DNA of 63,960 bases, filler included, from Reticulomyxa filosa (Eukaryota > Protista > Foraminifera): assembly GCA_000512085.1 (NCBI GenBank). It is 16 parts of 16 records of this genome, joined end to end, with 100 filler letters (N's around TTAATTAATTAA, not from the genome) between each part and the next. Parts side by side here need not be neighbours in the genome. Positions count along the whole stretch, not along the records: positions 6,382 to 10,159 come from ASPP01024962.1; 15 more parts are not named here. One strand, written 5' to 3'. The notes under the pieces are model-generated. The model did not search any database. It was given only the letters and a program-made list of their open reading frames with translations, and had not been told where the DNA came from. Position 1 is the stretch's first letter. Every line of letters starts with the position of its first letter. A program made the position numbers and the translations under genes. This document shows positions 1,900 to 63,960 of the stretch, one piece after another.

Positions 1900-2749
1900 T
1901 CAGTGGTCTGTTATTGGCTGTGTAAGTTTTGTCAAATCCAAATTTGGATTATTTGATCAAAAGAACATGACACACTTGTATCACTATCTGTTGAAATATA
2001 CACACTTGTCACTAAATCATAATGTCCATCCAATCTCTGTATTTCATGTCTTGCCTTCAAATCCCATATTTAAATTGTATTATCAGTTGGACAAAAAAGT
2101 GTTGATCTTCTGGAAAATATTTTACTTCCAGAATAAAACCTGAATGGCCTTTAAATACTTTTACTTCTTTTCCTGATTACACATTCCACATTTGAATAGT
2201 ATTATCAGTCGAACAAGAAACAATAAATTGACAATCTGTCGAAAATTTCGCAAATCTCACAGAATCTGAATATCTAACCAACTGTTTTAATTTTCAACTG
2301 TTTTTAACTTCCATAAAATAGTAGTTATGACAATACAGTCATTTGGCTATTTACTACAGTAGAATGCAAAGTAAAGTTGATCATTTTGGTTTTTTATTAA
2401 ATCTTTACTAAAAAATTTGAATATTTTATTGATTTTGAAAATTTTCGAGAAAAAGTCAATGTGTATGTATCGTAATAATTAAATTTGACAATTTTTTAAA
2501 AAATTATGTCTGAATATTGTTTTTTCATGAAGAAAATCATATTACATATCACGCCTCTGTTGTCCTGTAAAATTTTCAGTAATTTAAAATATTTGGTCTA
2601 CAATTCTAGCTTAATAATGAATTATAACTTTTATAGCTTTTTCTGACTTTTTTTGTCAAAGTGCCGTTTCAATTACAAATAACTATTAACGAGTCAATGC
2701 TTACCAATTGTGATATCTAAGTCTCTTGCTTGTTTATAGTAATACCCAT
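1900..2749 (-). pseudogene. Decayed WD40-repeat gene of the expanded family
   Basis: The minus strand reads exon 1 MGITINKQET*ISQL|gtaagc (2749-2705), a partial module SEKAIKVIIHY*AR (from 2646), then TKYFKLLKIL, then WD repeats FIVSCSTDNTIQMWNV*SGKEVKVFKGHSG and TDNTI*IWDL with stops and frameshifts. The left boundary is approximate. Confidence 0.7.
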
Positions 2750-3221: not shown

Positions 3222-3804
3222 TCAATCCAAGAAATCAGCAACAGCATCTTGTTTATCCTGATAGGAACTGATTAGTTCGCGAACATGCTGATCACTTTCC
3301 ATAAATTCATATTCATCCATTCCTTCACTTTTGTACCAATGCAAAAATGCTTTTCGTTTGAACAAACGAGCAAAAGCGCCAGAGATTCTTTGAAATAAGC
3401 CTTTAATAGCAGTGGAATTTGCAATAAAGGTTCCACTGGCAGGAGTAATTTCAGGTGGAATTGAAATAATAGCTGACTTAATATTATTGGGGATCCAACT
3501 AACACAATCTTCCGACAATTTTTCGCTGACATTTAAATAAGGATAGGTAAAAGATCGTTTTAAATCGTTTCCACGATAAAGCAAAGCCACACTCAAATAT
3601 TTACCATCTCCAGGATATATATTTGTCATAAAGTTCCTGGAAGACCACATTTGATCTGTCAATTCCTCATAAGTCAAGTGTAGTTTTGTTCCTTGCCCAT
3701 GTGCAAATATAGGACTTTGAGACATCAAAAAGAAATGTAAACGAGGAAATGGAGTCAAATTTATTGCCATTTTTCGCAAATCATTATGTAATGGGTTAGG
3801 AAAT
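3222..3804 (-). CDS. Highly divergent beta-tubulin (foraminiferal type-2-like), last exon; 5' part off contig
   Basis: Contains DLRKMAINLTPFPRLHFF, WIPNNIK, FIANSTAI, LFKRKAFLHWY and EGMDE, and ends YQDKQDAVADFLD*. The acceptor AG is at 3806-3805. Confidence 0.9.
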
Positions 3805-3811
3805 CTATTTT

Positions 3812-3848
<37 letters not shown>

Positions 3849-3851
3849 TTT

Positions 3852-3951: not shown

Positions 3952-6281
3952 TACTTTGCATTCTACTGTATTTTGAAAAACGATGGAATACTTCCTTTAG
4001 TACATCAACATGTGTTGTTTCGGAATCAGTTGGCGATTAATAAATCATCAATGTATACATCAACATCGTCCATATCTCCAAATATAGATGTCATTATACG
4101 CTGGAAAGTTGCCGGAGCATTGGTGAATCCAAAACCCATTCGATTCCATTCATACAATCCCGTTGGTGTAATGAATGCTGTTTTGTACCTATCTTTTTCT
4201 CTAATAGGTACATGTAAGTATCATGAACGTATATCCAATTTTGAAAAGATACGCTTTGACTCTAACTTTTTTAAAAGATCATTTATATTTGGTAATGGCC
4301 ATTCATCTCGAATTGTTGCTTGATTAAGCTTCCTGTAATCAACACACATTCGTAACGATCATCCTTTCTTTTTTACCAATAGTACTGGCGCTGCAAATTG
4401 AGATGAGCTCGTTCGAATAATACCACTTCGTTCTAATTCTGCTACTTGTCGCTTTACTTCTTCTTGGTGCAAATGATTTAATGGATACGGTTTATTTTAA
4501 TTGGTTTTGTCCCCGCTTTCAATTCCAATTTCATTTCTGCATTGGGTATTTGCCCGATATCAAATTGATTTGTTGCTACCATTTTTTGATTATCGATAAG
4601 AAGTTGTTTTACTATCTTTCCTATTTGTGGGTTAGATGTAGTTCCAATTTTTGGTTTCAAATTTGTATTTTCATTTCTTATTTGCTCAATTATTGTTAAG
4701 TCGACATTGTTGCATAAAAATTTTTGTTTAGACTCTATATCATCAGGTGACTCTGGAATTGCATTAAATCTATTACTATCTTGCTTTCTGTTAAGTCCTT
4801 TTTTGCAATCACTTTTGTTACATATTTTATTTTTATGTTCAATTTCTGACGTCAACTCCAAATCTTGACCATCTAAAATGTCATCGGATTGTTTGCGTTC
4901 AAATCTTTCGTTCTCCAATTTTAATGCATAACCCAATCGTCGCAACGCACTCCTCGATAGAATAAAGTTATGTGGTAGATTTGGTACCACATAAAAACTT
5001 TCCTTGAAAATTATCATTGATTTGTTGTTCGCATCATTGATTGTCAACTCCAACTTTTGTTGTAGTGGTATTGATCCACCGGCGTGAATCACAATGAATG
5101 CTCTGGCATCTTTGGTTAGTAATCGATGAAATTTTCGTGCAATTTCGTCACTTACTGCGCATATTGATGCTCCTGTATCAGCAACTGCTCGTATAATTCC
5201 AATTTCCTTGGTTTGTAATTCAATTTCGATTGCATCCGGCTTCTCCATCACCTTGTCGATTCCGAGCATTGGGAGAATGTGTTCAATGTTTTGTTAAACA
5301 TGTTGTTTCTCTAGTACCTGCAATTCATTGCTGTTTTTGGTACAGTCTCGTTGTTTATGGCCTTGTTTGCCGCAACTCCAACATTCATCATTCAACTGTC
5401 GTTTGACGCCTTTATGTTCGTCGTAATGCTTTGTATCTTTTGGAAAACGCTTTTGGTGATCAATATATTTACTTTGATGCCTGTTGCTAATACGATCGCT
5501 GAATTCATTGTATTCATTGTTGCCATATTTACCACCCCATTTTTCGTTAACTGTAAAACGGTTAGTTCTATAGAATGCATTCGGATTATTTCTTTTCTGC
5601 AAATTAATTTTTTTGTTATTCGTAATTCTTTTTGTTTGTTTAAATCTATTTTTTGCTTGAATTTCGTCTTCGAATCTATTTTGAACCTTTTCTAATGCCA
5701 ACTCTGTCTCGTTCAGCGTTGTCGGATTTTGGTCTTACACTAATCTCCTTGTCAATCCGCTCAAAGATTCCAGCAACTCTTCCATCAACCTCTCGTCAGA
5801 TGGTTTTAACCTCTTTCTTGCAGGAACATTACACTCAATTGCATAATCCAGTTCCAATTTTAATGAAAACTTTGCTTGCCTCCATCTCAATAGAATATCA
5901 GCTGGATTTTCTTAAATTTCGTTGTGAACTGCAACAGATCGTTCGTTTTTTCTGCAACGTTATGCTTACCTCCAAACATTTTGCACATCCATGTCATCAA
6001 TAAATTGAATGTTTGAGGATTTTCTGCTATTGCCATCTCCTGTATTTCAATTGCCAAGCATTGAGATAATATATATATATCTCAAGCAAAAGTTGTCTTC
6101 AAGTTTATACGTAGATTTCCATGCGATGAATTGTCTGCGCCAACGAGGAAATTCATCTCGATTACCGTCGAATACATGACGAAAACGGTTATGTGGCTCT
6201 AATGCTAACTTCATTGTTGTCGCACCCAATTCCAAGTTATCCAAGTCATCATCATCATCATCACTCACCATTGGATTACCA
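3952..6281 (-). mobile_element. Degenerate Ty3/gypsy LTR retrotransposon, internal region (gag, protease, RT); fills the contig
   Basis: Contains the gag zinc knuckle CWSCGKQGHKQRDC and the aspartic protease motif VADTGA. RT motifs are SLRMCVDYRKLN, KTAFITPTGLYEWNRMGFGFTNAPATFQR and VYIDDLLI. Domain order is PR-RT. Several stops and 1-nt frameshifts occur (e.g. ~4490, ~4030). Confidence 0.93.
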
Positions 6282-6381
6282 NNNNNNNNNNNNNNNNNNN
6301 NNNNNNNNNNNNNNNNNNNNNNNNNTTAATTAATTAANNNNNNNNNNNNNNNNNNNNNNNNNNNNNNNNNNNNNNNNNNNN

Positions 6382-7462
6382 TTGTTGACCAGATCGAATA
6401 TCCCATAAACGAATACTTTTATCATCTAATACAGATAATACTGTATTTATACCATTACTAATATTTCTTGATCCATTTGGTACATATTTTACACAATTTA
6501 TTGTATCTTCATGTCCTTTCAATACAAGTAATTGTTTAGTAGTTTCAATATCCCAAATACGAACAGTTTTATCATATGATCCAGAACATATAGTATATCC
6601 ATTACCACCAATTACACCAGCAATACCACTTTTATTGTCATTATCGTCATTCATTTGTAAAGGTGAAAAATCAACACATTGTACAAAATGTTTATGTCCT
6701 CTGAAAACATGTAATGATTTGGGTTTTTCAATATCCCATAAATCAATAAAATCATTAAATGCAGGACATAAATATCTGCCACCATGAAATGGTGAAAATG
6801 TAACGCAATGAACACCTCTTCGATTGTAATCATGTAATATTTTTGATTGTTGATTATCTTTCATATCCCAAAAGCGAACGGTATAATCATAAGATGAAGA
6901 ACAGATAACATTACGATTTTTGGTATGATAATGATAAGGTGAAAATTTCACACTAAGTACAGAACTTGAATGTCCATCGAATAATTGAATTTGTGTATTT
7001 GTCTCTATATCCCATACACGAACTGTGTTATCACTTGAACCAGAACAAAGGAGTTGACGGCCATCGAGTGTTGAATAATCAATACCGTGCACACTAGAAG
7101 TGTGTCCAATACATTTTTTAAGTAATTTAGATGAACGAAAGGTTTCAAGTAAGAAGACATTAGCTGCCTATATTCAATCATAATTGTTTAAACATTTATC
7201 ATTATTAATTAAAAAAAAAAAAACAAATTAAACAGATCAATATTTAACATATTTAATAATAATTATGTCAAAATCTTTGATCCATCCTAATTTAATTTTT
7301 AATGTTCGAGTCCAATATTCAATAATCAATTGGTTCTCTTCTTCTTCGGACTGATTCAATCACAAGTAAATACAATGAGAAAACTAGTTTTTCTAAAGAA
7401 TTGAACTGAAAGCTTACTAATTCTCGCTTCGGTGAAGTTTTTTCCTTTTCAAGAGTAAGCAT
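6382..7462 (-). CDS. WD40-repeat protein of the expanded family, 3' end off contig
   Basis: Exon 1 is MLTLEKEKTSPKREL|gtaagc and exon 2 (7350-7249) is SEEEENQLIIEYWTRTLKIKLGWIKDFDIIIIKY. Exon 3 has repeated GH...CSGSxDxTVRxWD units. Confidence 0.88.
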
Positions 7463-9615: not shown

Positions 9616-10158
9616 TTATGAAGATTTTCTTTGTTGAAAAATGATATCATAATCAGTTGTATCTTGACTTTCAACACAATACCATTCACCATTTTTACTT
9701 TCACGAATATCTTGTCTGATATTGTCTAACATTTGTTTCAGTGGATATCCACTTTTGTATTTGGATTTGACAACCTTTTTCATGCAATTACTAAGCAATG
9801 AAAAATCAGCAATTTGATGTCCTTGAGTAGTTGACCAAATGGTCAAAAATCCATCATCATTATGCCCATATAATGACATACCTTTGTGTATGATTGTTCC
9901 CCTTGTCCTTATTTTATGAGAACTTGGATTATTTTTACCACGACAAACATCAATAATAAATATTTTTGGAAAATCTGTGAAAGAGTCCATTTTGTTACAA
10001 TTAAATGTCGAACGCATTTCGTCAATTGATAAAAGTTTTCCATCGCTTGCCACTAACATATTTCCATCATCTCCATGTCCACAAATTATTGTTATCAATC
10101 CATCATATTTGTTAGTATTTTTGTGAAGTTCATGCTTTACAATTGTTTTGGCTAAAAA
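9616..10158 (-). CDS. Caspase-like (clan CD, C14) cysteine protease, 5' part off contig
   Basis: Has the His motif IICGHGD and Cys motif PKIFIIDVCRG, plus a p10-like region FLTIWSTTQG. It is colinear with the paralog at 62627-63648. Confidence 0.85.
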   Translation of the reverse strand, partial: FLAKTIVKHELHKNTNKYDGLITIICGHGDDGNMLVASDGKLLSIDEMRSTFNCNKMDSFTDFPKIFIIDVCRGKNNPSSHKIRTRGTIIHKGMSLYGHNDDGFLTIWSTTQGHQIADFSLLSNCMKKVVKSKYKSGYPLKQMLDNIRQDIRESKNGEWYCVESQDTTDYDIIFQQRKSS

Positions 10159-10884: not shown

Positions 10885-11131
10885 ACGTTCAGTTTTGCAC
10901 TTTAAAAATAATTTAAAAATTTAATTTCACTTTCTTTTTTAACAACTTATTGGATAGTTGGCTATGACATGAGGAGGAACAAAGACAAAATGATCTTCTG
11001 CTGTTTTTATTGTTAAAGGCATATCCCCTGGGACGGAATACAATCTTGAAAACGTTGCTTACCACTCTAACAAAAAAAACTAAAAAGGCTGTGACGAGGG
11101 AGCCAAGAGAAAAAAAAAATTGGCAAGCAAT

Positions 11132-12250
11132 ATGGCTAAAAAACAGCAACCATCAAAGAAAGAGGCCCCGAAAAAAGTATTAGATGAAATACTCTTTAAA
11201 GAAAATGATAAAAATTCTTCTGAATTTCTTCATATTGTGAGCCAGCCCTTGAAAGAAAAGCCATCTCAAATTATCGATGATTGGTTATTTTTAGGTACTT
11301 TGTTGTGGGAAAAATTTGTTGAAATTTCATATGCGTATGTAAATGTACACAGCAAATATATGCATATGCACGTACATAACAAAGGAAACCGAATGCATTC
11401 GGCATCGCCAGCTACGATAGAAACGCTAGGAATAACGCATGTGTTAAATGTAACGAACGGCATGCCCAATTGTTTTCCAGAAAAGCTAAAATACGCAAAC
11501 ATAAGCATATTGGACGAGGACCAAGTGGACATTTACCAATACTTTGAAGCAGCAGCACAGTTCATTGATGAATGCAACCCGTATTACCTTCAATCCAAGC
11601 ACGGAGAAGAGCAAGATGACGAAGAAAAGGAACAAAAAAAACCACGTATACTCGTGTTTAGTTCCCTCCCCTTGCCTGCTTTTTTTTTTTTTCTATCCCC
11701 TCTTGCAATACCAAAAATGTATATGTATGTATACGTACATGCATAAATGTGTATTATGAAGTGTAGACATTGTGCGGTGGGGATAAGTCGTAGTGCGACA
11801 GTTGTGATATCCTACTTGATGTCTCGCCACGTAAAAATGAGCAATGAGGATAAAGCGGTATTGGAGGAAGTGCGTCAGACCAATCAGAAAAATTGGGAAG
11901 AAATGAAAAAAGTGGAAGAGTTAGAGAGAAAATGCTGTGGATGTTTTCCCTCTTCATGTGGGGCATGTTGTTCCCGGAATGTTTCGGAAGCCTACACACT
12001 CAACAAGGCCGCAGAACAAAATGGCACTTTGTCTTTGGGAGACGCTTTTCACTATGTTCAAAAAAAAAGAAATATCATTTGTCCAAACCAATCTTTTTGC
12101 AGACAATTGACCGATTGGGAAGAATACTTGCACCATTCTAACCATTCTTCTGTCCCCTTTCAAAGCAGCTCCAGTCTTTTGCCTATGTATCGCAATAGGT
12201 TTCTTCAGGATCGAGAAACATCTCAACAAAAAGCATGTCACATTTTGTAA
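11132..12250 (+). CDS. Atypical dual-specificity protein phosphatase (3 exons)
   Basis: Motifs are PSQIIDDWLFLG, LGITHVLNVT, the spliced catalytic loop ILV|HCAVGISRSATVVISYLM and AFHYVQKKRNIICPNQSFCRQL. It ends CHIL*. Confidence 0.9.
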
Positions 12251-15945: not shown

Positions 15946-16629
15946 NNNNNNNNNNNNNNNNNNNNNNNNNNNNNNNNNNNNNNNNNNNNTTAATTAATTA
16001 ANNNNNNNNNNNNNNNNNNNNNNNNNNNNNNNNNNNNNNNNNNNNTTAACGTTTTTTTGTTTTGCTTTGAAGTGATTGAAAGAATATGGTTTGAATTTGA
16101 TCTTCTCAGTTTGCAGCTGCAATGTTGGGTTTTGTTTGGGCTTTGATGATTTGGTTTTCTTTGCGTTTTTTTTTGTCTTAACTTCTTTTTCTATTTTTTT
16201 TCTCTTTCTCTCTTGCTTCCAGATTTTGGCGGATTTGCACAGCAGACACATCTTGAAAGCGTGGGCTTCAGAAAACTACCATAAAACCATCTCTTCTCTT
16301 TTTTTTATCTCTTTCAATCCAATTGGCAAACCAATTACATTGCCGTATATTCAACAACCTTTATCTTTTTATCGTGTTCAGGTATTCTATTTCGCGCATA
16401 TCAACATTTAATTTGATAAATTATCATTATGATTATTACAACAACGTCTGACCATATTGAACCCTTCAAAAGAACCGTACTACAATGACTTGGAGTTCTC
16501 TGTTGAGCTGCTTTACCAGCTTCTTTTAGAAGTGTTTTTAAAACAGGTCGATGGGGAATACGTAATTGAAGTTTCTCATTTAATAAATTTTTTTTGGCCT
16601 GTCTCTGTATTCCTGACATATTATTAAAA

Positions 16630-17750
16630 ATGGTGCTAGGAAATTGCACAAAAAGTGGAGATAATATGGACATAGGATATCCTGGAATATCATTGATAAC
16701 CGGGGTGATATTCGTTCCGTTGCAAGCGTTGATCGCTGTGTACGTGTTGTACCACTTACTAAATAGTCGGACGAAAACGCGGTCCATTTTGCAAAAATTA
16801 GCAGCGATGCAAAATCTTTCGGCAATATATGTTCGAATTGCAATATTTATAATATCAATTGGGAATCAACTATCGGATTGGAGTACCGAGACTTCCTTTT
16901 ATTGTACTTTTTCATACTTGGCAACATTTCCAATGTTTTCGATAAGCTTTTGGTTTTTGGAAATATTTTGGTTGGAAAGACTTCGAAGAGTGTTCAAAAC
17001 TTCGATATTCGAAGTAGATGGACGTTTCGTTGTGTACTTTTACGTATTATTTACAGGCATCGCGTTGTCAACAATTGTATGTTATATCTTTGCTGCTGTT
17101 CAAAGCGATTGTGTGACACCATATAAAAGTGGTGATTTTAATCCCTTTGGAAACAAAGATAACATTTTTCATTCGTGTGGAACTCGCCATCCGGGAATAG
17201 TATTGCTTGCTTCAGGAGTTGGTGCGAGACTTTTTAAAAAAATATTTTTATTGATGCACTTGATTTGCTCTGTTCGGAGTCCAAACACAAATGAATTGAA
17301 TTTTTTTTTTAAAAAAAAAAAGGAATGCTTGGTATTATATTCGCGAGTGCAACCTTGTCATATATGTTTATTCGACGACTGCTCGCATTGCAGAAGATGA
17401 GTAATAACGTTTTGACGGCGGACAAGGAGAATAGTTATGACACAACGCAGATGCTTCGTTCGCAAATACAAAAATGTGCAGTTACTGCATTGCTCAGTAT
17501 CACCGTTACTGTCGCTAGTGTAACCGCTCAAGCCTTTTGGGGCAATTTGTCATATCCGTTATCTTATATTAACGGCACGGTCAATGCTTTTTGCGTCCTT
17601 TGCTCCTTCAAATTTGGAGAACCTCTCTACCAACGCTGTTTCTTTTGTTGTGCTTATCACGACAATACTCCTCCTTCTCCTTATCAAAATGCTCTTACAC
17701 TGGCATCTGTTGACCACAAAAGCAATAGTGTGACCGATCGAAGTGTATAA
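16630..17750 (+). CDS. Seven-transmembrane GPCR-like protein (2 exons, intron 17222-17322)
   Basis: The spliced product has 7 hydrophobic segments, WLERL at the end of TM3, and a helix-8-like EPLYQRCFFCC. Confidence 0.7.
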
Positions 17751-22800: not shown

Positions 22801-25379
22801 AATTCCGTGTCTTGGATAAAGAAAACTATTCTCTTCGGAACACCATTGGAGCATTGAAAGAAGAAGTGGAAGATTTGAAGAAGAAAAAGACTGACACTGA
22901 CTACAATAACCATGCCCATGCAAATCCAATCGATGAAAAAATCCGAGAAGAGGACAACGACAACAGTTTTGAGATTGTACACGTATATGTATATATACAT
23001 ATATATATTATTGTGTACATACATATGCACAATATATTGCATTATATTTAGTGAAGGGGGGAGGAACAGTTTATTTCACTCCAAATAAGTTTCTATTTGC
23101 ATTTGTTTTGGGATACGTTAACAGAGAGGTCGCCAGTGCTTTCTCCAAAGGTTTTTGAGACAAATTCCTTCGTTGCGAATGCAACCATGGTATTGGGTTC
23201 CTATTGAAAATGAGTATGTCACAGGGACGAGATGGACTTCTCCGGGGTCCGCTGCACACGACAGCGTGCCTATTCCGGACGATTTTCAACGTCTGTTTCA
23301 AAACCCCACTTCGACCAGTTTTGATATTTCTCTCTCTTAAAAAAAAAATAAAAAATTAACTGTTTTTTTTCTTTCTTAATTTATTAAAAAAAAAAAAAAA
23401 TAGAAAACGACAGAAGTGAAACGCTTAAAAATGCTGGATTATACACGCAAGAGGGATTAATATCTGGCATTAGTCCTCAACGCGAAAAACTTGTAAACAA
23501 TGTACTGAAACAAATGCCGCTTCCGCCGACTCAAATCCGCGCTTGTCTTTTCGACGCGGATGACACTAAATTAGGCAAAGGTGTGATTGAAAAGTTATTG
23601 GCAGTCATTCCACAAAGCGAAGAGAGAAAATATGTCCTACACAAGGTCAACACACTCCAAGTTAAAGCTTCGCAACTGAGTTATGTCGAACAATTTTTCT
23701 TTCAATTGGCCGATATTGACCTGTTAGATTTCAAACTGAAACTGTGGCAGTCGAAACGAAAAGTTTTGTTGTTGTTATTATCATCATTATTTTTAAATTT
23801 TTTTTTTTTTTTTAAAAAGACACTTTACAAATGATTCATGTCGCGACCCTTCTATTGTTTACGTAACTCTTATATATGGTACATATGTGTATGTGTCTCG
23901 TGGATAGCTGCAAGATTGTTTGGATGACTCTTACTCCGAACTGGGCACACTTAAAAATGCGCTTATTGCAATTGACAAATCCGAACATTTGCGTCAAATG
24001 TTACAAATTGTGCTCGCTTTTGGAAACTACATGCATGCGGGCGCAACAGACAGTGATAAACAATCTCCTCATGGAGTTCATGGATTCCATTTGACGTCTT
24101 TGAGAACGCTGAAAACGGTGAAAAGCGCCAATGAATCGATTACTTTACTGACATACATTTACTCCTACTGCAAGACAAAATTTCCAAGCGCATTAAAAGT
24201 AATTGATGATTTGAGACCATGTCACGAAGCCAAAAAACGTTAAATGCGTGATTCTCTGTTGTGTTCACACAAATACACTTACACATTCCCTATGTTGGTA
24301 TTACATATACATATATATGTGTATATTTGTATATGTATGTACATATATATTTGTACTTTGATTTTACTCTATTGTAAACTATTTGAAAACGTTCATTTGC
24401 AAAATAATAATAATAATGGTAATAATATTTGTGACTGTGAAACCTTCTCTCTCTGAATAGTGAAAGGAGCAACCGTATATCAGCATATGATGTTGGCACA
24501 CGAGGAATTGCTGGCGTTCCAGAGACAACTGCGAAAATACAGAGAGCAAAAGAATAAATTAAAAGAAAATGCATCGAATTCCACTAGTCGAGAGAGCACA
24601 ATAAACAAAGAACATGCAAACAAATTTGATGTATCCATTAGTTCATTCAATCGAAAGGCTCGTGACAGTTGGCTCAATCTCGCCACGATGTGGAACACTT
24701 GCATCACCACCGCAACTCGTGTCGCTCAAGAATATGATTTCGAATTTTCTCAAAATGACAGCTTCGAAGAACTTGTTAGCGTTCTGGACGATTTCATTTG
24801 CGATCTAAGTCAAGCTCATAGTTATTCGGGAAATTCGCAAAATCACAAAAATATCCAAAGTTAATCGTTCGCAGTTTAGTTCTTTTGTACACACATTTAC
24901 CCTTTTTTTAAAAAAAAATTGTGATGGAGAGTTTGCTAAATGGCCCACTGTTTTGCATTTCTTGCATGCGGTTTTGCTAAAGGAAAGAAATCTCGTGATC
25001 TACGACTCATTACCACGAAACTTAAAAGAAAGTTACAAAAAAGACCTTCACTTCGCGAACTTCAAAGGAGAAACATTATTTTAGATAACTATGCCATTGA
25101 CAAGGCAAAAAAAAAAAGTGAAGCAAAAAAAGAGTTCCAAGTTCATGCCCTTTTTTATGACCGTGCTGACACTCACAAAGGCACCAGCATTTTGCTCTGG
25201 AGCCAATGTCTGTGAAAAAGGTTCAGTTGTTGGAAAATTTGGCCAAATCCAATGATTTCACCAATCAAATGTCCAACACTGTCGAAGCGGTTCAAAAACC
25301 AAAGCGAAGAAAACATTCGCTAACTAGCACGGAGATTCAAATCGGCACGCAAAATGCCACTTGCCTTACAAGAGGATAA
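19824..25379 (+). CDS. Formin (FH2 domain) with long disordered N-terminus and C-terminal RPEL motif; multi-exon, 5' end off contig, stop position uncertain (25379 or 25392)
   Basis: Has the lasso MQPWYWVPIENEYVTGTRW, the post LQIVLAFGNYMHAG...GFHLTSLRTLKTVKSANESITLLTYI, and the RPEL motif LKRKLQKRPSLRELQRRNIIL. Confidence 0.85.
22117..22232 (+). repeat. (AAT/AAC)n microsatellite encoding a poly-Asn tract inside the formin
   Basis: Imperfect AAT repeats lie in frame within ORF 21240-23051. Confidence 0.9.
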
Positions 25380-35029: not shown

Positions 35030-36123
35030 ATGGGAAGTAGTACAGCAAAGACAAACGGAAGCAAAGAAGAAAAATTGGTAAAAAAGATGTGAATAAATTT
35101 ACAACATTATCAAAGACAAAATAAAAACAAAACAAGTGAAGAAGAGACCAACCAAATATTGAGCAATTGGCTCCGATCTTGTTCAATGCAACGACGATGG
35201 GTGAATGATTTGAACAAAATGATTGCAAAATATGTTAAATACATGTATATATGCATGCACTTGTAATTACCCGTTTACATGAATTGTATTATTGTATCTA
35301 CAGGCCAAATACTTTAAAATCTTGAAAGTGATTGCAAGTCACTCTTATGTAACGAAGAGCATAGCCTTTTCCCCAGATGGAAGCACAATTGTTTCCTCAG
35401 CAAATGATAAAACACTTCGAATTTGGGATGTGAAATCAGACAGAAATAAAAGCATTGAAAGGACATTCAAGTGGTACCAATGATGCATATTTTTCATCAG
35501 ATGGTAGCATGGTTATATCATGTGGAAATGATCGAACAGTTCGATTGTGGGATATACAAACAGGGAAACAAATAAGAGAATTGGAATCCCGTGAATGGAA
35601 TATGATAAAAGCTCGACTTTCATCGGATGGAAATACCATTATAGCCCTTTCAATTGCTTCTTTTATTACATTATGGGATGTAAAATCTGGACAAACAATT
35701 CCAATTCGAGCAAGGACATTAGGCCACGCAGAAGATGTAAATTTTTCACCAGATGGTCAACCGATTGCATTAGCTTTAAACAATAATATAATTGACTTGT
35801 GGAATATACAATCAAACGAAAGGCTAAAACAATTGCAAAGACATTTGGATGCTGTAAGCACAGCAAGCTTTTCTGTGGATGGTCAATTTATTATATCTTG
35901 TGCACTTGATAATACAACTATAATTTGGAATACAATGACCGGAGAACAAATAAAAAAATTTTATGAATAGGTGAATAAAATATATAGTGTAAAATTTGCA
36001 TCGAATGTTCAAATTATTGTTTTATACTTGGGTAATGACACAATCCAATGGCAGGACGTGGAAACAGGACAAGAGCTTGTTATAACATCTTTGGACGATG
36101 GAACCATTTTATTATGGAAATGA
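35030..36123 (+). pseudogene. WD40-repeat gene of the expanded family, frameshifted with premature stop
   Basis: Reads MGSSTAK..., then a module exon ending at 35233, then WD repeats split between ORFs 35292-35483 and 35455-35970. There is a TAG at 35968 with WD-like sequence continuing beyond it. Confidence 0.75.
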
Positions 36124-43914: not shown

Positions 43915-45209
43915 CCTCCTCCTCCTGGAACGATGATGACGAGCCGGACACACCGGAGTGCGAGGAAAATCGATCAGAATCGGAGTGGTCAAAGTTGGAG
44001 CTTGCATGGTACTGCATGTCGTCGTTAAGGTATTTGCCTTGCATCGTAATGAAATCAGGAGCGTCTCTGAGTACAGAAAACACCTCTTTGATGATATCGT
44101 AGTACGTGCATATTCTCTTGTTGTTTTTACGCAGTTTGAAGAAGCAATGCAAAGCAAGTGCTTCGAACGCAGAGCTGTTCAGACACTTGTCGGTTCGTAT
44201 CAATTTAGTAGTGGAAGGCTCAGTAATAAAGGAAGTCCACCCTTTTAGAAATACAATGCAATTGTGACACTTTTGCGAGATCACTCTCAAGTCGGGACGC
44301 AACAGCACAGCTTTTAGGATCTCTTTGATCGCGTGGCTCGAATCTTCGCCAAAGTCACTCTCAATGTCACACTCCGAAAGTAAGTTGTCGCATATATTGA
44401 CTAGCTCTGTTTTCGGCTCCATCTTGTATACGTGCGTGCTCTGACCTTTGCAATTGAACGACAACAAGTCCACTCGCTTGTGTGTGAAACACATGTTGAT
44501 TTTTATTGGCATGCTATCCCAATGGATTAACAGCCTACACTTTTTGATATTTTCAGAGTACGACAGTACGCGATATTCCCTCCAGTTTCTTTGTTTTCTC
44601 ACTTTTTCTTGGACCCATTCGTACACTTGATCGTAATGGCACTTTTCTTGAGGGCCATCGAACACTAAAAATAAGTTTACATTCTCCTTCCCTTTCATTG
44701 ATAGCTCTGTCAATATGCTGCCTCCAATAAATGCTCCGTACACCTTGTCTCCCCATGGGCACTGGTCTTGCATATTTTTCTCTTTCGTACTTTGTGACAA
44801 CAGGTAGATTAGAAGGTCGTTTGTTATTGCGTACATCCGATCCAACGTTTCTTTGTCGCTTTTTATCTTTTGCAAATTCTCCTCAAGCATTTCAAACTTT
44901 TTGTTTATTCATTCGTTTTATTTTTTTTTTTTCAGGCAATTCCTTTCAAAAATTAATAAATAAATAAAAAGATTAACATATTCAACAACAAGCTTGTCAA
45001 AATCCTGGATCCAACCTATTTTAATGTTTAATATTCGAATCCAATGCTTGATAATTATTTGGATCTCCTCTTCTTCTAACTGGCTCAACCACAAGCACAA
45101 ACCACACAACAAAACATTCTAAAGACGGTCAGCTTTTAAAAAGATTTTTTATCTCTCTAATATGAACAACTACTTGAGCTTTTTTCTTTATTTTTTTTTT
45201 TCTAGACAT
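43915..45209 (-). CDS. OAS/CD-NTase-like nucleotidyltransferase-fold protein with the WD40-family N-terminal module (predicted exons 45209-45174, 45079-44978, 44896-43915); 3' end off contig
   Basis: GGSILTELSMKGKENVNLFLVF has the same spacing as OAS GGSxxxxTxLRGxSDADL. Further matches are RVDLL, CIVFLKGW, SSAFEALAL and IIKEVFSVL. The upstream exons join in frame through GT-AG introns. Confidence 0.65.
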
Positions 45210-45949
45210 GAAAAATGACACTAGAGAAAAAAAATTCACTGAAACGGTCTAAGGAGAAAAAAAAAAAAAAAGAAAAAGAGAAGAACATACAATTAAGCAA
45301 ATTCCAAATTATCACGAAAAGTGAACAATCCAGAAAAAACATATATATAAACTATCTTGAGAGTTTTTGAAGAAATTTGATATATTGAAAAATATTGAAT
45401 ATTTTGTCTTAGCACTGTTCAAGTAGCTGATAATGAAGAATGAGCGAAAATAGTGGTTATTTTTAAACAAATTCACTAAAAAGTGCTTAAAGCTTACAAA
45501 ATATTGAAGACGATTTTATTTGTCGAAATGCGATGTTTTATGACAATTAAGGCAAAAATATGGCAATGCTTATTACTTTTCGATTAATTTAGTGGCCTTA
45601 AATGCCATCATTCTTATTTTTAAAATAATAAATAATTTTTTTTAGTCATAAAAAACATTAATTGAATAAATTGTTTATTTGTTTTGATTACTTAAATTTT
45701 TTTATACATTTTGAAAATACTTTAAAAAAAATGGTAAATTTCATAACTATGAAATAAAAATTGCATTTAAAGATAGTTCCTTCAAAATTTATTTCATCTA
45801 CCAATTTCATAATAATTTTATCAAAATCATCAATCTATCCTAGTTTTATTTCTGAAATTCGAATCTAATATTGAATAATAAATTTCATTTTGACTTTTCA
45901 TTATTTATCATTTATTATTTGTCAACAATATAATTTATTTGTGATTCAT

Positions 45950-46480
45950 CAAAACAAATAAGTAAATAAACAAATCATTACCAATTGCGAGTGATCCCAT
46001 TCACGCACTTTAGTCTTCATATTAGTTGATACTTATTTCTTTATCATCTTTTCCTCCAATGATGTATATGATTATCTCATTCATTCAATATTGCAATACA
46101 ATCAGATAATTGACTGTGTAAAGTGTTTTCAAATGTTATCCATTTGCTTTCTCGCATTGAATACATATGCACTGATTTTGAAGTAATCCATTTATTATCA
46201 TTCCAAGCCAATCCACTAAAAAGTAAGATGATATCATTGATATGCAAATATGCGCAATGATAGGATACTTCAGTGCAATCACAAATAAGTAGTTGATAAG
46301 ACTGAAAGTATTGCTATCTTCATCATATTCAATTAATAGTCCTGTACTTTGGCAAAACAATAGTATTTGATAATTTTGTTTATTTGTTTTTATCATTTCC
46401 TGCTCTTGTTCTTGTCCATTTTTTGAATTTGATACAAAGCAGTGATAATTTATTACATTATCAGTTGGTAATCTACAGTA
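45950..46480 (-). pseudogene. Kelch/beta-propeller-family gene remnant
   Basis: Reads YHCFVSN, QILLFCQSTGLLIEYDEDSNTF and IYIIGGKD with frameshifts. It is similar to 61440-61930. Confidence 0.6.
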
Positions 46481-51614: not shown

Positions 51615-52421
<807 letters not shown>

Positions 52422-56110: not shown

Positions 56111-56808
56111 TTAGGTGCTTATTTTTCTCGGCTCAAAAAACATTTCCATTCCATTTTTCAGTTGCAAAGTAGCACTGAAAACGGGATCGAATTGTTGGCC
56201 TTGTTTCAATGTGAATTTATACTTGGTGAGAATTTTGGCAATGGCAATTTTGGCTTCCATCAAGGCCACATGTTTGCCCAAGCACAATCTCGGCGAGACA
56301 TTGAAATAAGGATAATAGGAGGGCTCATAGCCTTTCTCTTGGTTGTAAAAGCGATAGGGATTAAATTGAGTTGGGTTTTCCCATAAATTAGGCATTCGAC
56401 TCAACCCATAATTGAAAATGATGACCCCATCACCTTTTCGAATGACCTCTCCTTGCGGACACGTTATATCCTCCACGGCGAATCGAATCATCGAAGGCAC
56501 AGAGGGATGCAGTCGCAGCGTTTCCAAAAGCACCGCTTCGAGCAACTTCAGCTGCTGCACTTTCTCATAGGTCAGTGCATGTTCGTCTTCACTTGAGCTT
56601 ACCGTCAACACCTCCTGCAACACTTGATCCTGAACTTTGGGGTTCAAACTCAACTCATAGCAAGTCCACGTCAGCAAAATCGCAGTCGTGTCTCTCCCCG
56701 CTATTATAAAGTTTATGGCATTATCCCTCAGTTCTTTCATCGTTATATTCGGAATCTCTTTCGCATACAATGACAACAAGTCGTAGCGTTCTGCCAATTC
56801 ATTTCTAC
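56111..56808 (-). CDS. Cytochrome P450, last exon (resembles CYP86-clan-type fatty-acid hydroxylases)
   Basis: Has the I-helix NFIIAGRDTT, K-helix ETLRLHPSVP, meander FNPYRF and heme loop FNVSPRLCLG. Confidence 0.93.
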
Positions 56809-56949
56809 CTGTTAGCTTTATAATAACAATTACAACAATAATAATAATANNNNNNNNNNNNNNNNNNNNNNNNNNNNNNNNNNNNNNNNNNNNTTAATTA
56901 ATTAANNNNNNNNNNNNNNNNNNNNNNNNNNNNNNNNNNNNNNNNNNNN

Positions 56950-61439: not shown

Positions 61440-61930
61440 TTTTTTTTAATTCTTACAATATTGTTGATCCTTCTTTAACATTTTTCTGATCACAACAGTA
61501 ATTTGTTATTTATAACTTATTTAGAAAATAATATTAGTATTTTTGATTTAAATATATTTCAATTTATTAAACATGATACTTTATCAATTGATAATGAAAT
61601 ATTTTATCATTACTTTGTATTAAATTCAGAAAATGGACAAGTACAAGAAATGATGAAACAAATAAACAAAATTATCAAATGCTGTTGTTTTGTTTGAATG
61701 TGATGAAGATAATAACACTTTTCAATTTCATCAACTACGTGTTGTAAGAATAGTGCATCATTCTATGCATAATACATATGTTGTCATTTTATTCTTTGAT
61801 GGACGGAGTTGGAATGGTAATAAATTCGTTTATTCAAAATTAGTGCACAATTATTCAATTCAAGAAAAAATGGATTACATTTAAAGATATATTGCCTATT
61901 CCATTGGGCCATTGTTTTAGGATATTGGAT
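61440..61930 (+). pseudogene. Kelch/beta-propeller-family gene remnant among other gene debris
   Basis: Reads LLFITYLENNISIFDLNIFQFIKHDTL...YHYFVLNSENGQVQEMMK...ECDEDNNTFQFHQL with frameshifts. It is a paralog of 45950-46480. Confidence 0.6.
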
Positions 61931-62626
61931 GAAAATAACAGTTATATACAGACAAGTCGATAGTAAAAGAAAGCGAATATTATTAAAGTTGAAGACAGAG
62001 AGTAGCTCTAGCTTTTTGGCCAGAAATGATTTGACAAAAATTGAGTGTTGCAATTCAACATATAAGGAACAAATCAATCATTATATTTGTTTAATTTGCA
62101 AACAGCACAGTCTAGTTCAACATGAAGTAATATCTTTGTTTTCAAAGATTTTCAACAATATCAATACTTAAAATCTGTTGCAATTTATTTTGATTTTTAA
62201 TTCTTTAAAAAATATTGAACTCAACTTTTTAAATTTTTTTAAATAACAAAGTAAGATAGAACACATCTTTTAATGCTTGCATTCAATCAAATCAAACAAG
62301 TTTAATATCAACTTACTTTTCAAACAAAAACACACCTCCATTTCTTATTTGACAAAAAGTAAATTATCCCCAAATACGAATGGGACCAGAACACAAATAT
62401 CTACCAGCATTAAATGGTGAAAATTCAATACCACAAACACCATCAGTATGTNNNNNNNNNNNNNNNNNNNNNNNNNNNNNNNNNNNNNNNNNNNNTTAAT
62501 TAATTAANNNNNNNNNNNNNNNNNNNNNNNNNNNNNNNNNNNNNNNNNNNNTTTTTTTTGCTGTCTTTTGTTTCTAAACGAAAAAAAAAAAAACACACAA
62601 AACGCACAAATATTCGAACAAATACA

Positions 62627-63648
62627 TTAGGTACATTTTTCATTAGTTTTCTTTTGAGAGAGGACAATATCATAAAAGCTCGTGTCTTGAGTTTCGACAC
62701 AGTACCACTCCCCGTGTTCAATGTGCCGAATATTCATTCGGACTTGATGCAGCATTTGTGGGAGCACACAGTCAACGTTGGAACTTGACATGGTGTTGTG
62801 CATACATTCACTTAGTAAAGAAAGATCAGGGAGAATATGACCCCTCGTGGTCGACCATATGGTTAGAAACCCATCATCATGGTGTCTACATATTGAACTG
62901 TTATTGTGTTTTTCATGGCATGGGACCCTCGCATTGGAAATGCAGAACGTTTGGGAGCATCTTTCCCACGACAAGCGTCAACTATAAAAATTTTGGGACA
63001 ATTTTTCAATGATTCCATTTGATAACAATCAAAGCGATGACGAATGCTATCAATATACGTGAATCTACCATCACTTGTTACCAACACATCCTCATCATCT
63101 CCATGGCCACATAAAATAACAATCAATGCATCATAGCTGTTTTTATTTTCTTGCAATTCTTTATCTTTAATCAATTTCTCAAAAAATTCATGAATGTCTG
63201 TTTTGGTCATATTTGGCGTTTGATTGCATACAAAATCATATTTCAATTTGTTTTCAAACATATCTTTGAAATTTGCCATATCTTTTTCTTGCACTTTTGC
63301 AAGCTTGCACCACCCAGTTTCTTCATTGTACTCACTGATTCCAATCATTGCAACTAATGCATTGCGAACCACTCGAACATTTGAGTTTGCAAAAGAGCGA
63401 GGAGAAGACTTCCAAACGAGCTGAAAAGATGGATGTTGTGATGCTTCAAATGCCCGAATGAGATCATTTTCCGTCTCAATTGGCTGTTTACTATTTCGGT
63501 CGACAATCTCCACCATCAATTTCATTCGAACCATACGTTCAAAATCGTCCCAATCCAACAGTTTACAAACATTATCATACAACTCTGAAAACGTCGGCTT
63601 GTTCATCTTTATCTTTGCTTTCGTCGAGTTTAGCCTTACTTCTGCCAT
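62627..63648 (-). CDS. Caspase-like (C14) protease with PB1-like N-terminal domain; one frameshift in the p20-p10 linker
   Basis: Contains ALVAMIGISEY, VILCGHGD and PKIFIVDACRG. The p10 region FLTIWSTTRG...GEWYCVETQDT continues in the -1 frame (ORF 62627-62974) and matches the paralog at 9616. Confidence 0.85.
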
Positions 63649-63960
63649 TCTCTAAACATGTATCGCCCATTTAATTCCATATCAATTTGGTGTAGAGTAC
63701 AATTAAAACTTTTCTTTGTTTTTTTTTTATAAACAAACAAACAAACAAACAAACAAACTTGGAAGTGTTCCTCTTTTTTTTCTTCCGTTTTCTATTTTTT
63801 ATTTTTTTTATTTTTTCCAATGTGTGGTCTTTTCTTTCTGTTGTTTAATATAAGTATCTTTGTTTTTTTTTTTTTTTTTTTTTTTTTGGGTTCCCCACCC
63901 ATGTGTCAGCGATTGGAGGATGCAACGCAAGAGATATGTGAATAGCAAACAAGGTGTGAT

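Follow-up and report, generated by a model that had tools for sequence, protein, structure and literature searches.

What is the short predicted exon that stands beside WD40 and Kelch propellers in several genes of the monothalamid foraminiferan Reticulomyxa filosa, and what does the peptide that it encodes bind? The question was raised by a window of 63,960 nucleotides (the whole stretch of DNA that was analysed, filler included), which consists of 16 AT-rich contigs joined by N-linkers and in which a cassette of a short first exon, an intron and an exon of about 34 codons had been predicted. Here we follow this module through the window and through 186 stored proteins, and conclude that it is real and portable, an undescribed small domain that links the expanded WD40 and Kelch families of this single foraminiferan. 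Hundreds of predicted R. filosa WD40 and Kelch proteins carry only a generic-repeat annotation; the module joins both into one system, and a single 34-residue bait could find the common partner of both propeller families.

Copies of the module in the window

The four copies first described sit on four different contigs, and a fifth was found beside a Kelch-like pseudogene. The copies and the exons that flank them are as follows.

7249..7350 (-): module copy 1, 34 codons, CAG/...TAT/GT, in a WD40 type-1 gene
7418..7462 (-): likely first exon of the copy-1 gene, with 15 codons and a GTAAG donor at 7417
6382..7167 (-): WD40 exon of the copy-1 gene, Pfam PF00400 at E 1.9e-31, open to the contig end
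44978..45079 (-): module copy 2, whose two flanking introns are homologues of those around copy 1
45174..45209 (-): 12-codon candidate for the first exon of copy 2, uncertain
43916..44897 (-): foreign ORF 3' of copy 2, GC 0.43 and GC3 0.55, joined in frame if a candidate 80-nt intron is removed, no family match
35132..35233 (+): module copy 3, divergent, WD40 type 2, 5' boundary tentative
35030..35077 (+): likely first exon of the copy-3 gene, 16 codons, begins Met-Gly
35304..36117 (+): WD40 exon of the copy-3 gene, Pfam WD40 match, frameshift near 35435, stop at 35968-35970
2599..2646 (-): module copy 4, a decayed half copy
2749-2705 (-): first exon of copy 4, 15 codons, contains a stop
1953..2317 (-): remnants of a decayed WD40 region, downstream of copy 4
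about 45802..45893 (-): module copy 5, absent from the original prediction, a decayed copy with two stops, placed C-terminally in a Kelch-like pseudogene
45982..46471 (-): Kelch-like exon, decayed, upstream of copy 5 and with its donor at 45981, tblastn with Kelch proteins

The translations of the three full copies were as originally quoted; they align without gaps, with 56% (copy 2) and 32% (copy 3) identity to copy 1, and all end in TAT/GTTAA. The residues of copies 1 and 3 are identical, letter for letter, to proteins P0011 and P0001, respectively. When a profile of the 186 modules was run on the window, copies 1, 2 and 3 scored 65, 58 and 41 bits and copy 5, matched at 45894-45805 (-), scored 40 bits, against at most 3.7 bits for reversed-frame controls in the same scan. 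The half copy at 2646, also part of the prediction, reached 11.8 bits, a score that none of 500 shuffles attained. The cassette itself was found on all four contigs, with first exons of 15, 12, 16 and 15 codons, in keeping with the 12-16 first given (that of copy 2 is a candidate), each with a phase-0 donor.

From these donors, and from an in-frame AG before codon 1 in copies 1, 2, 4 and 5, we infer that the module is spliced as a phase 0-0 exon. At the start of copy 3, whose acceptor had been called unclear, no in-frame acceptor was found, and the sole nearby phase-0 AG lies at 35145. Phase 0-0 exons are common by chance, so the symmetry of the exon is permissive of shuffling and not proof of it.

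Three of the five window copies are damaged, as expected from the fast turnover first suggested: copies 4 and 5 are pseudogenes, and the copy-3 gene has both a frameshift and a stop. Copies 1 and 2 alone show no damage within the reach of their contigs. The module heads its gene, as had been claimed, in copies 1-4, but copy 5 lies at the 3' end of the Kelch-like pseudogene, and no WD40 remains were found 3' of it. As for the domains said to lie downstream, three WD40 propellers and one NTase fold, WD40 is backed by Pfam for copies 1 and 3 and by remains for copy 4, while the supposed NTase fold behind copy 2 had no library match.

The DNA of copy 2 aligns to that of copy 1 from the last part of intron 1 through the exon and all along intron 2 to its acceptor, where the resemblance breaks off; an in-frame AG before the foreign ORF would give the 80-base intron. 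GC3 is 0.55 in this ORF versus 0.12 and 0.19 in the WD40 exons, and its public gene model begins at the ORF's own Met. It has two relatives, both from R. filosa and both without the module, no matches in Pfam, PADLOC, NCBIfam or the PDB, and in none of the 186 stored proteins is it joined to the module. Since WD40-type introns travelled with copy 2, an independent exon insertion before an NTase-like ORF, as originally envisaged, is unsupported; the gene looks instead like a type-1 gene with its WD40 exon replaced, or like an assembly chimera. The NTase catalytic motif is given as hG[GS] plus [DE]h[DE]h in an excerpt of PMC2794190. By eye, GGS is present, and the ORF of the window, like P0188, has Asn at both acidic positions; if it has an NTase fold at all, the ORF would be inactive.

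Several other features of the window were recorded. The Kelch-module gene at 45802-46471 and the module-WD40 type-1 gene at 44978-45209, both on the minus strand, seem to stand in tandem, and proteins P0049 and P0036 are gene models that apparently fuse such neighbours. The Met-Gly start of the first exons at 35030 (+) and 2749 (-), seen also in the models behind 10 of the 186 module rows, may be an N-myristoylation site. At 4478-6325 (-) lies a retroelement-like region, with an ORF that has weak retroviral-type aspartyl protease matches (E 0.00085, below cut-off) and, by eye, gag-like ORFs upstream. Caspase-like ORFs occur at 62863-63651 (-; PF00656, E 3.7e-15) and, by eye, at 9616-10158 (-). 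A second decayed Kelch-like gene, in which no module was detected, at 61494-61951 (+), is faced by a 3' fragment of a WD40 type-1 gene at 62367-62450 (-). By eye, we take 75-824 to be a serine peptidase, 3222-3851 the 3' part of a beta-tubulin-like gene, 11084-12250 a dual-specificity phosphatase, 16570-17750 a membrane receptor-like protein, 23388-25215 a formin-like gene, 51974-52421 a Rab1-like GTPase and 56111-56849 a cytochrome P450.

Distribution, conservation and architectures of the family

A word-based search gave 48 matches among 134 candidates, all named Reticulomyxa filosa. A full HMMER search, run on proteins, found 198 representatives at E <= 0.001, of which 150 were listed (12 of them already named in the word search), and domains downstream and upstream of the module were tabulated in 186 proteins. 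All 20 of the divergent or low-scoring HMMER matches that were looked up came from R. filosa, as did all 68 matches for which a species name is known; the other 118 listed and 48 unlisted matches are unnamed. The module is likely restricted to the R. filosa lineage. No relatives were found in viral contigs (368 pattern matches) or metagenome contigs (595 pattern matches), nor was there a matching entry in Pfam or the PDB that would identify the module with a domain already characterised. In the ESM Atlas a feature search gave no usable match, and a search by structure ranked the two WD40 clusters of foraminifera first (55 and 117 members), the remainder being short generic helical matches. The matches that Foldseek listed for the P0039 model were all propellers, and WD40 columns dominated one PDB search. 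Among the papers listed for R. filosa or foraminifera in connection with the topics of WD40, Kelch, Skp1 and ubiquitin ligases, none concerned the module; the species' genome paper may treat the families. In excerpt, PMC12475580 names R. filosa in a list only, and PMC8955593 offers background on LIS1 dimerisation only.

A helix-Pro-helix motif occurs in other foraminiferan proteins, and a wider family based on it is unsupported: its 16 in-frame matches at 119 metagenome loci and 18 at 146 viral and prokaryote loci were chance-like except for L069, which had no homologue and no profile match to the module (probability 0.2%). L069:3-698 (+) is a eukaryote-like ORF of 232 aa with a UIM (E 0.0004, below the Pfam cut-off), the helix-Pro-helix motif near 213-290 and then another domain. 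In loci of the viral collection, Elongin C-like (L003) and Skp1-like (L013, L016-L018, L021-L024) ORFs were seen by eye, some with intron-like interruptions on records of 1.8-2.5 Mb.

Conservation was scored over the 186 modules, one with an indel being dropped. Near-invariant positions are W13 (181 of 186), R15 (175), G22 (182), W23 (183), F27 (176) and Y34 (174), and I24 is kept in the same range of 174-183. On average 16 of the 34 positions are hydrophobic, which is high for such a small unit, and both halves are amphipathic. AlphaFold2 models of P0039 have a helix at 343-357, a loop and a helix at 363-374, with pLDDT of about 50-58 versus 98 for the adjoining WD40 domain, and two amphipathic helices are predicted; a hairpin is not established, because the isolated module was modelled as a single continuous helix.

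The contrast between constant box and variable propeller, also part of the original prediction, was substantiated in 65 proteins with at least 200 propeller residues, in pairs that are not independent of one another. Within WD40 type 1 the module is 70% and the propeller 53% identical, the module being higher in 515 of 540 pairs; between WD40 types the values are 53% and 30% (674 of 681 pairs), and within type 2 they are 51% and 43% (187 of 251 pairs).

In the same 186 stored proteins, the module stands N-terminal to WD40 in 122 and C-terminal to Kelch in 15. Ten have the order Kelch-module-WD40, four WD40-module-WD40 and two caspase-like-module-WD40, two are of other kinds, and in 31 nothing is recognised besides the module, many of these resembling read-through or cut gene models. 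All confidently identified partner domains are beta-propellers, and Pfam backs the Kelch identity in five of the nine Kelch-module proteins scanned. Two WD40 subfamilies follow the module, with 21 residues to the first GH in 27 type-1 models and 11 in nine type-2 models. In 10 of the 15 Kelch-module proteins the chain ends at most nine residues past the module, and a similar short basic tail is often present. Because the module stands C-terminal to Kelch, with the chain ending soon after, and no WD40 remains lie behind window copy 5, it is not an obligatory WD40 cap. Its portability is better supported than first claimed, as two WD40 subfamilies have it on their N-terminal side, Kelch has it on the C-terminal side, and it also lies between Kelch and WD40. 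Val follows position 34 in 88 of 186, as expected if many models read into the GT donor there. Two module-WD40 type-2 proteins, P0140 and P0167, have long Arg/Asn/Gln-rich N-terminal extensions.

For a module tree we took 83 of the 186, namely every Kelch row, every type-2 row and 20 random rows of the 91 of type 1 (34 columns; 9 of 80 branches starred). One clade (97/90) unites 14 of the 15 Kelch-module rows with five Kelch-module-WD40 rows, and the other five Kelch-module-WD40 rows form a separate group (96/75). These two Kelch-containing groups suggest that Kelch was fused about twice and WD40 was lost later, rather than many independent insertions. The Kelch tree, with 2 of 22 branches starred, has little resolution.

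A proposed shared partner and rival explanations

The main argument as to function is that a constant box on a variable propeller points to one shared partner. We propose that the module, carried by many WD40 and Kelch propellers, would bind such a partner, most likely a cullin-ligase adaptor, with the propellers as interchangeable substrate receptors; its two amphipathic helices would fold upon binding, and new genes would arise through duplication and through recombination in the two introns that flank the module. The conservation of the module, its three positions, the size of the family and its decay are observed; the ubiquitin-ligase role is one that we infer, and the identity of the partner is a guess. 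A docking box for a cullin adaptor is our best explanation, which we favour tentatively. Somewhat unlikely is the reading in full: that a shuffled phase-0 exon carries a cullin-adaptor box, undescribed and independent of position, which via a co-evolved adaptor makes ubiquitin-ligase receptors out of WD40 and Kelch propellers that number in the hundreds and are rapidly replaced, and which is this lineage's own counterpart to the repertoires built on the F-box, BC-box and H-box. Pairwise pN/pS between copies 1 and 2 (0.20/0.36) speaks for constraint on the module, while the values against copy 3 (0.40/0.48 and 0.44/0.50) indicate little constraint and count against a docking box, as does the placement of some modules between two propellers, which is unusual for a receptor. 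If the cullin-adaptor reading is true, the module would be a new receptor box, outside the known consensus sequences and active at either protein end, and it would suggest that the ligase repertoires of poorly studied eukaryotes are undercounted.

The main rival, to which we give a low though appreciable probability, is a self-association motif like LisH or RIIa/Dpy-30 that pairs propeller proteins into homo- or heterodimers. LisH before WD40 is a common layout, the module is similar to LisH in size, and the spacing of its putative helix-2 positions 26, 27, 30, 31 and 34 seems to resemble RIIa/Dpy-30. According to an excerpt of PMC9564828, the LisH helix-1 interface consists of L8, N9, L11, I12, Y15 and L16; five of these six inward positions map by class to module positions 6, 9, 10, 13 and 14. 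All five are found together in 129 of the 186 modules; that helix 1 fits the LisH spacing equally well counts against the cullin-adaptor reading. Against self-association, the LisH Asn is present in 5 of 186, the Tyr in none (it is always Trp or another residue) and its first leucine in just 3; among the Pfam matches listed for the scanned modules and proteins, LisH, RIIa and Dpy-30 are absent; and amphipathic helices in general have the i, i+3, i+4, i+7 pattern. A dimer motif would still be a new small domain deserving a family model, if a less surprising one.

It is improbable that the module docks propellers to a lineage-specific partner other than a cullin adaptor, for example a NACHT/caspase-type signalling scaffold. 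Such a partner would agree with the caspase-like sequence upstream of module-WD40 in two gene models (P0018, P0058) and with the weak NACHT match ahead of the module in P0168 (E 0.005), although all three may be mis-joined neighbouring genes; caspase-like ORFs are present in the window, and no module relative was detected outside one species. These caspase-like and NACHT-like neighbours are weak circumstantial evidence for a role in defence. Quite improbable, finally, is a module without separate function, either a structural cap or a passenger that gene conversion and recent duplications have carried along while the family decays. The damage to three of five window copies and the WD40-type introns of copy 2 agree with a passenger, and the Kelch clade (97/90) means that few fusion events are needed, but the module persists in Kelch proteins without WD40, has two different spacings to the first GH in types 1 and 2, and keeps its near-invariant W, R, G, W, F and Y while propellers drop to 30% identity.

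Comparison with known receptor boxes

The likeness of the module to receptor boxes is one of layout only, and none of the tests run placed it in a known box family. F-box receptors combine a constant box with a variable propeller in a large birth-and-death family, and this layout is common to the module family; unlike the F-box of SCF receptors, the module has only two predicted helices and no proline, can be C-terminal and is followed by no later F-box helices. Skp1 would be the poorest fit as partner, and a very improbable one. LisH is like the module in its roughly 33 residues, its two helices (predicted for the module), a comparable helix-1 hydrophobic spacing and its place before WD40, but its Asn and Tyr are absent from the module, its loop is about four residues shorter, and there is no profile match.

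Membership in the F-box or SOCS/BC-box families, as originally proposed, was not borne out. The F-box, SOCS and LisH Pfam families were found neither in 24 divergent modules nor among the best 25 of 37 families listed for 37 whole proteins, and the F-box and LisH profiles gave no match for the three window copies, in a search whose HMMER filters drop weak matches. Excerpts of PMC4878042 define the BC box as (S,T,P)LXXX(C,S,A)XXX-hydrophobic and the Cul2 box as hydrophobic-P-X-X-hydrophobic-X-X-X-hydrophobic, and place VHL boxes at the N-terminus as well, e.g. in Prame. The BC-box consensus occurs in none of the 186 modules with flanks, nor does any have a small residue at the sixth BC-box position. 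The Cul2-box proline is in register in 0 of 186, with isoleucine in its place in 177, and the full pattern occurs anywhere in two; the three hydrophobic positions of that box are hydrophobic in 183, 186 and 185 of 186.

KLHDC2/3 Kelch proteins bind Elongin B/C-CUL2 through an element outside the propeller (PMC12035522, in excerpt), and the VHL box of CRL2 receptors, including KLHDC2/3/10, and the SOCS box are, like the module, short helical elements beside Kelch or WD40. Unlike them, the module has two near-invariant tryptophans and lacks the BC-box consensus. By analogy an Elongin C-like partner would fit the Kelch-module layout, though it is improbable.

In DCAFs, a 30-residue helix-loop-helix lies ahead of a WD40 domain with WDXR (PMC6821201, in excerpt). 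Counted in proteins of at least 250 aa, as raw numbers with no background set, WDxR is present in the propeller of 29 of 44 type-1, 6 of 26 type-2 and 1 of 8 Kelch-module-WD40 proteins. Unlike the DCAF H-box, the module can also stand behind Kelch, C-terminally, or between two propellers, few type-2 proteins carry WDxR, and there is no sequence match; the H-box enters DDB1's BPA-BPC cleft, and for the module binding to DDB1 is putative. With the H-box of these CRL4-DDB1 receptors (e.g. DCAF1 aa 1050-1079) it shares a length of about 30 residues, a tentatively predicted helix-loop-helix and a position directly N-terminal to WD40, and by this analogy a DDB1/H-box-like partner role, although distinctly unlikely, would be the best fit to the module-WD40 layout.
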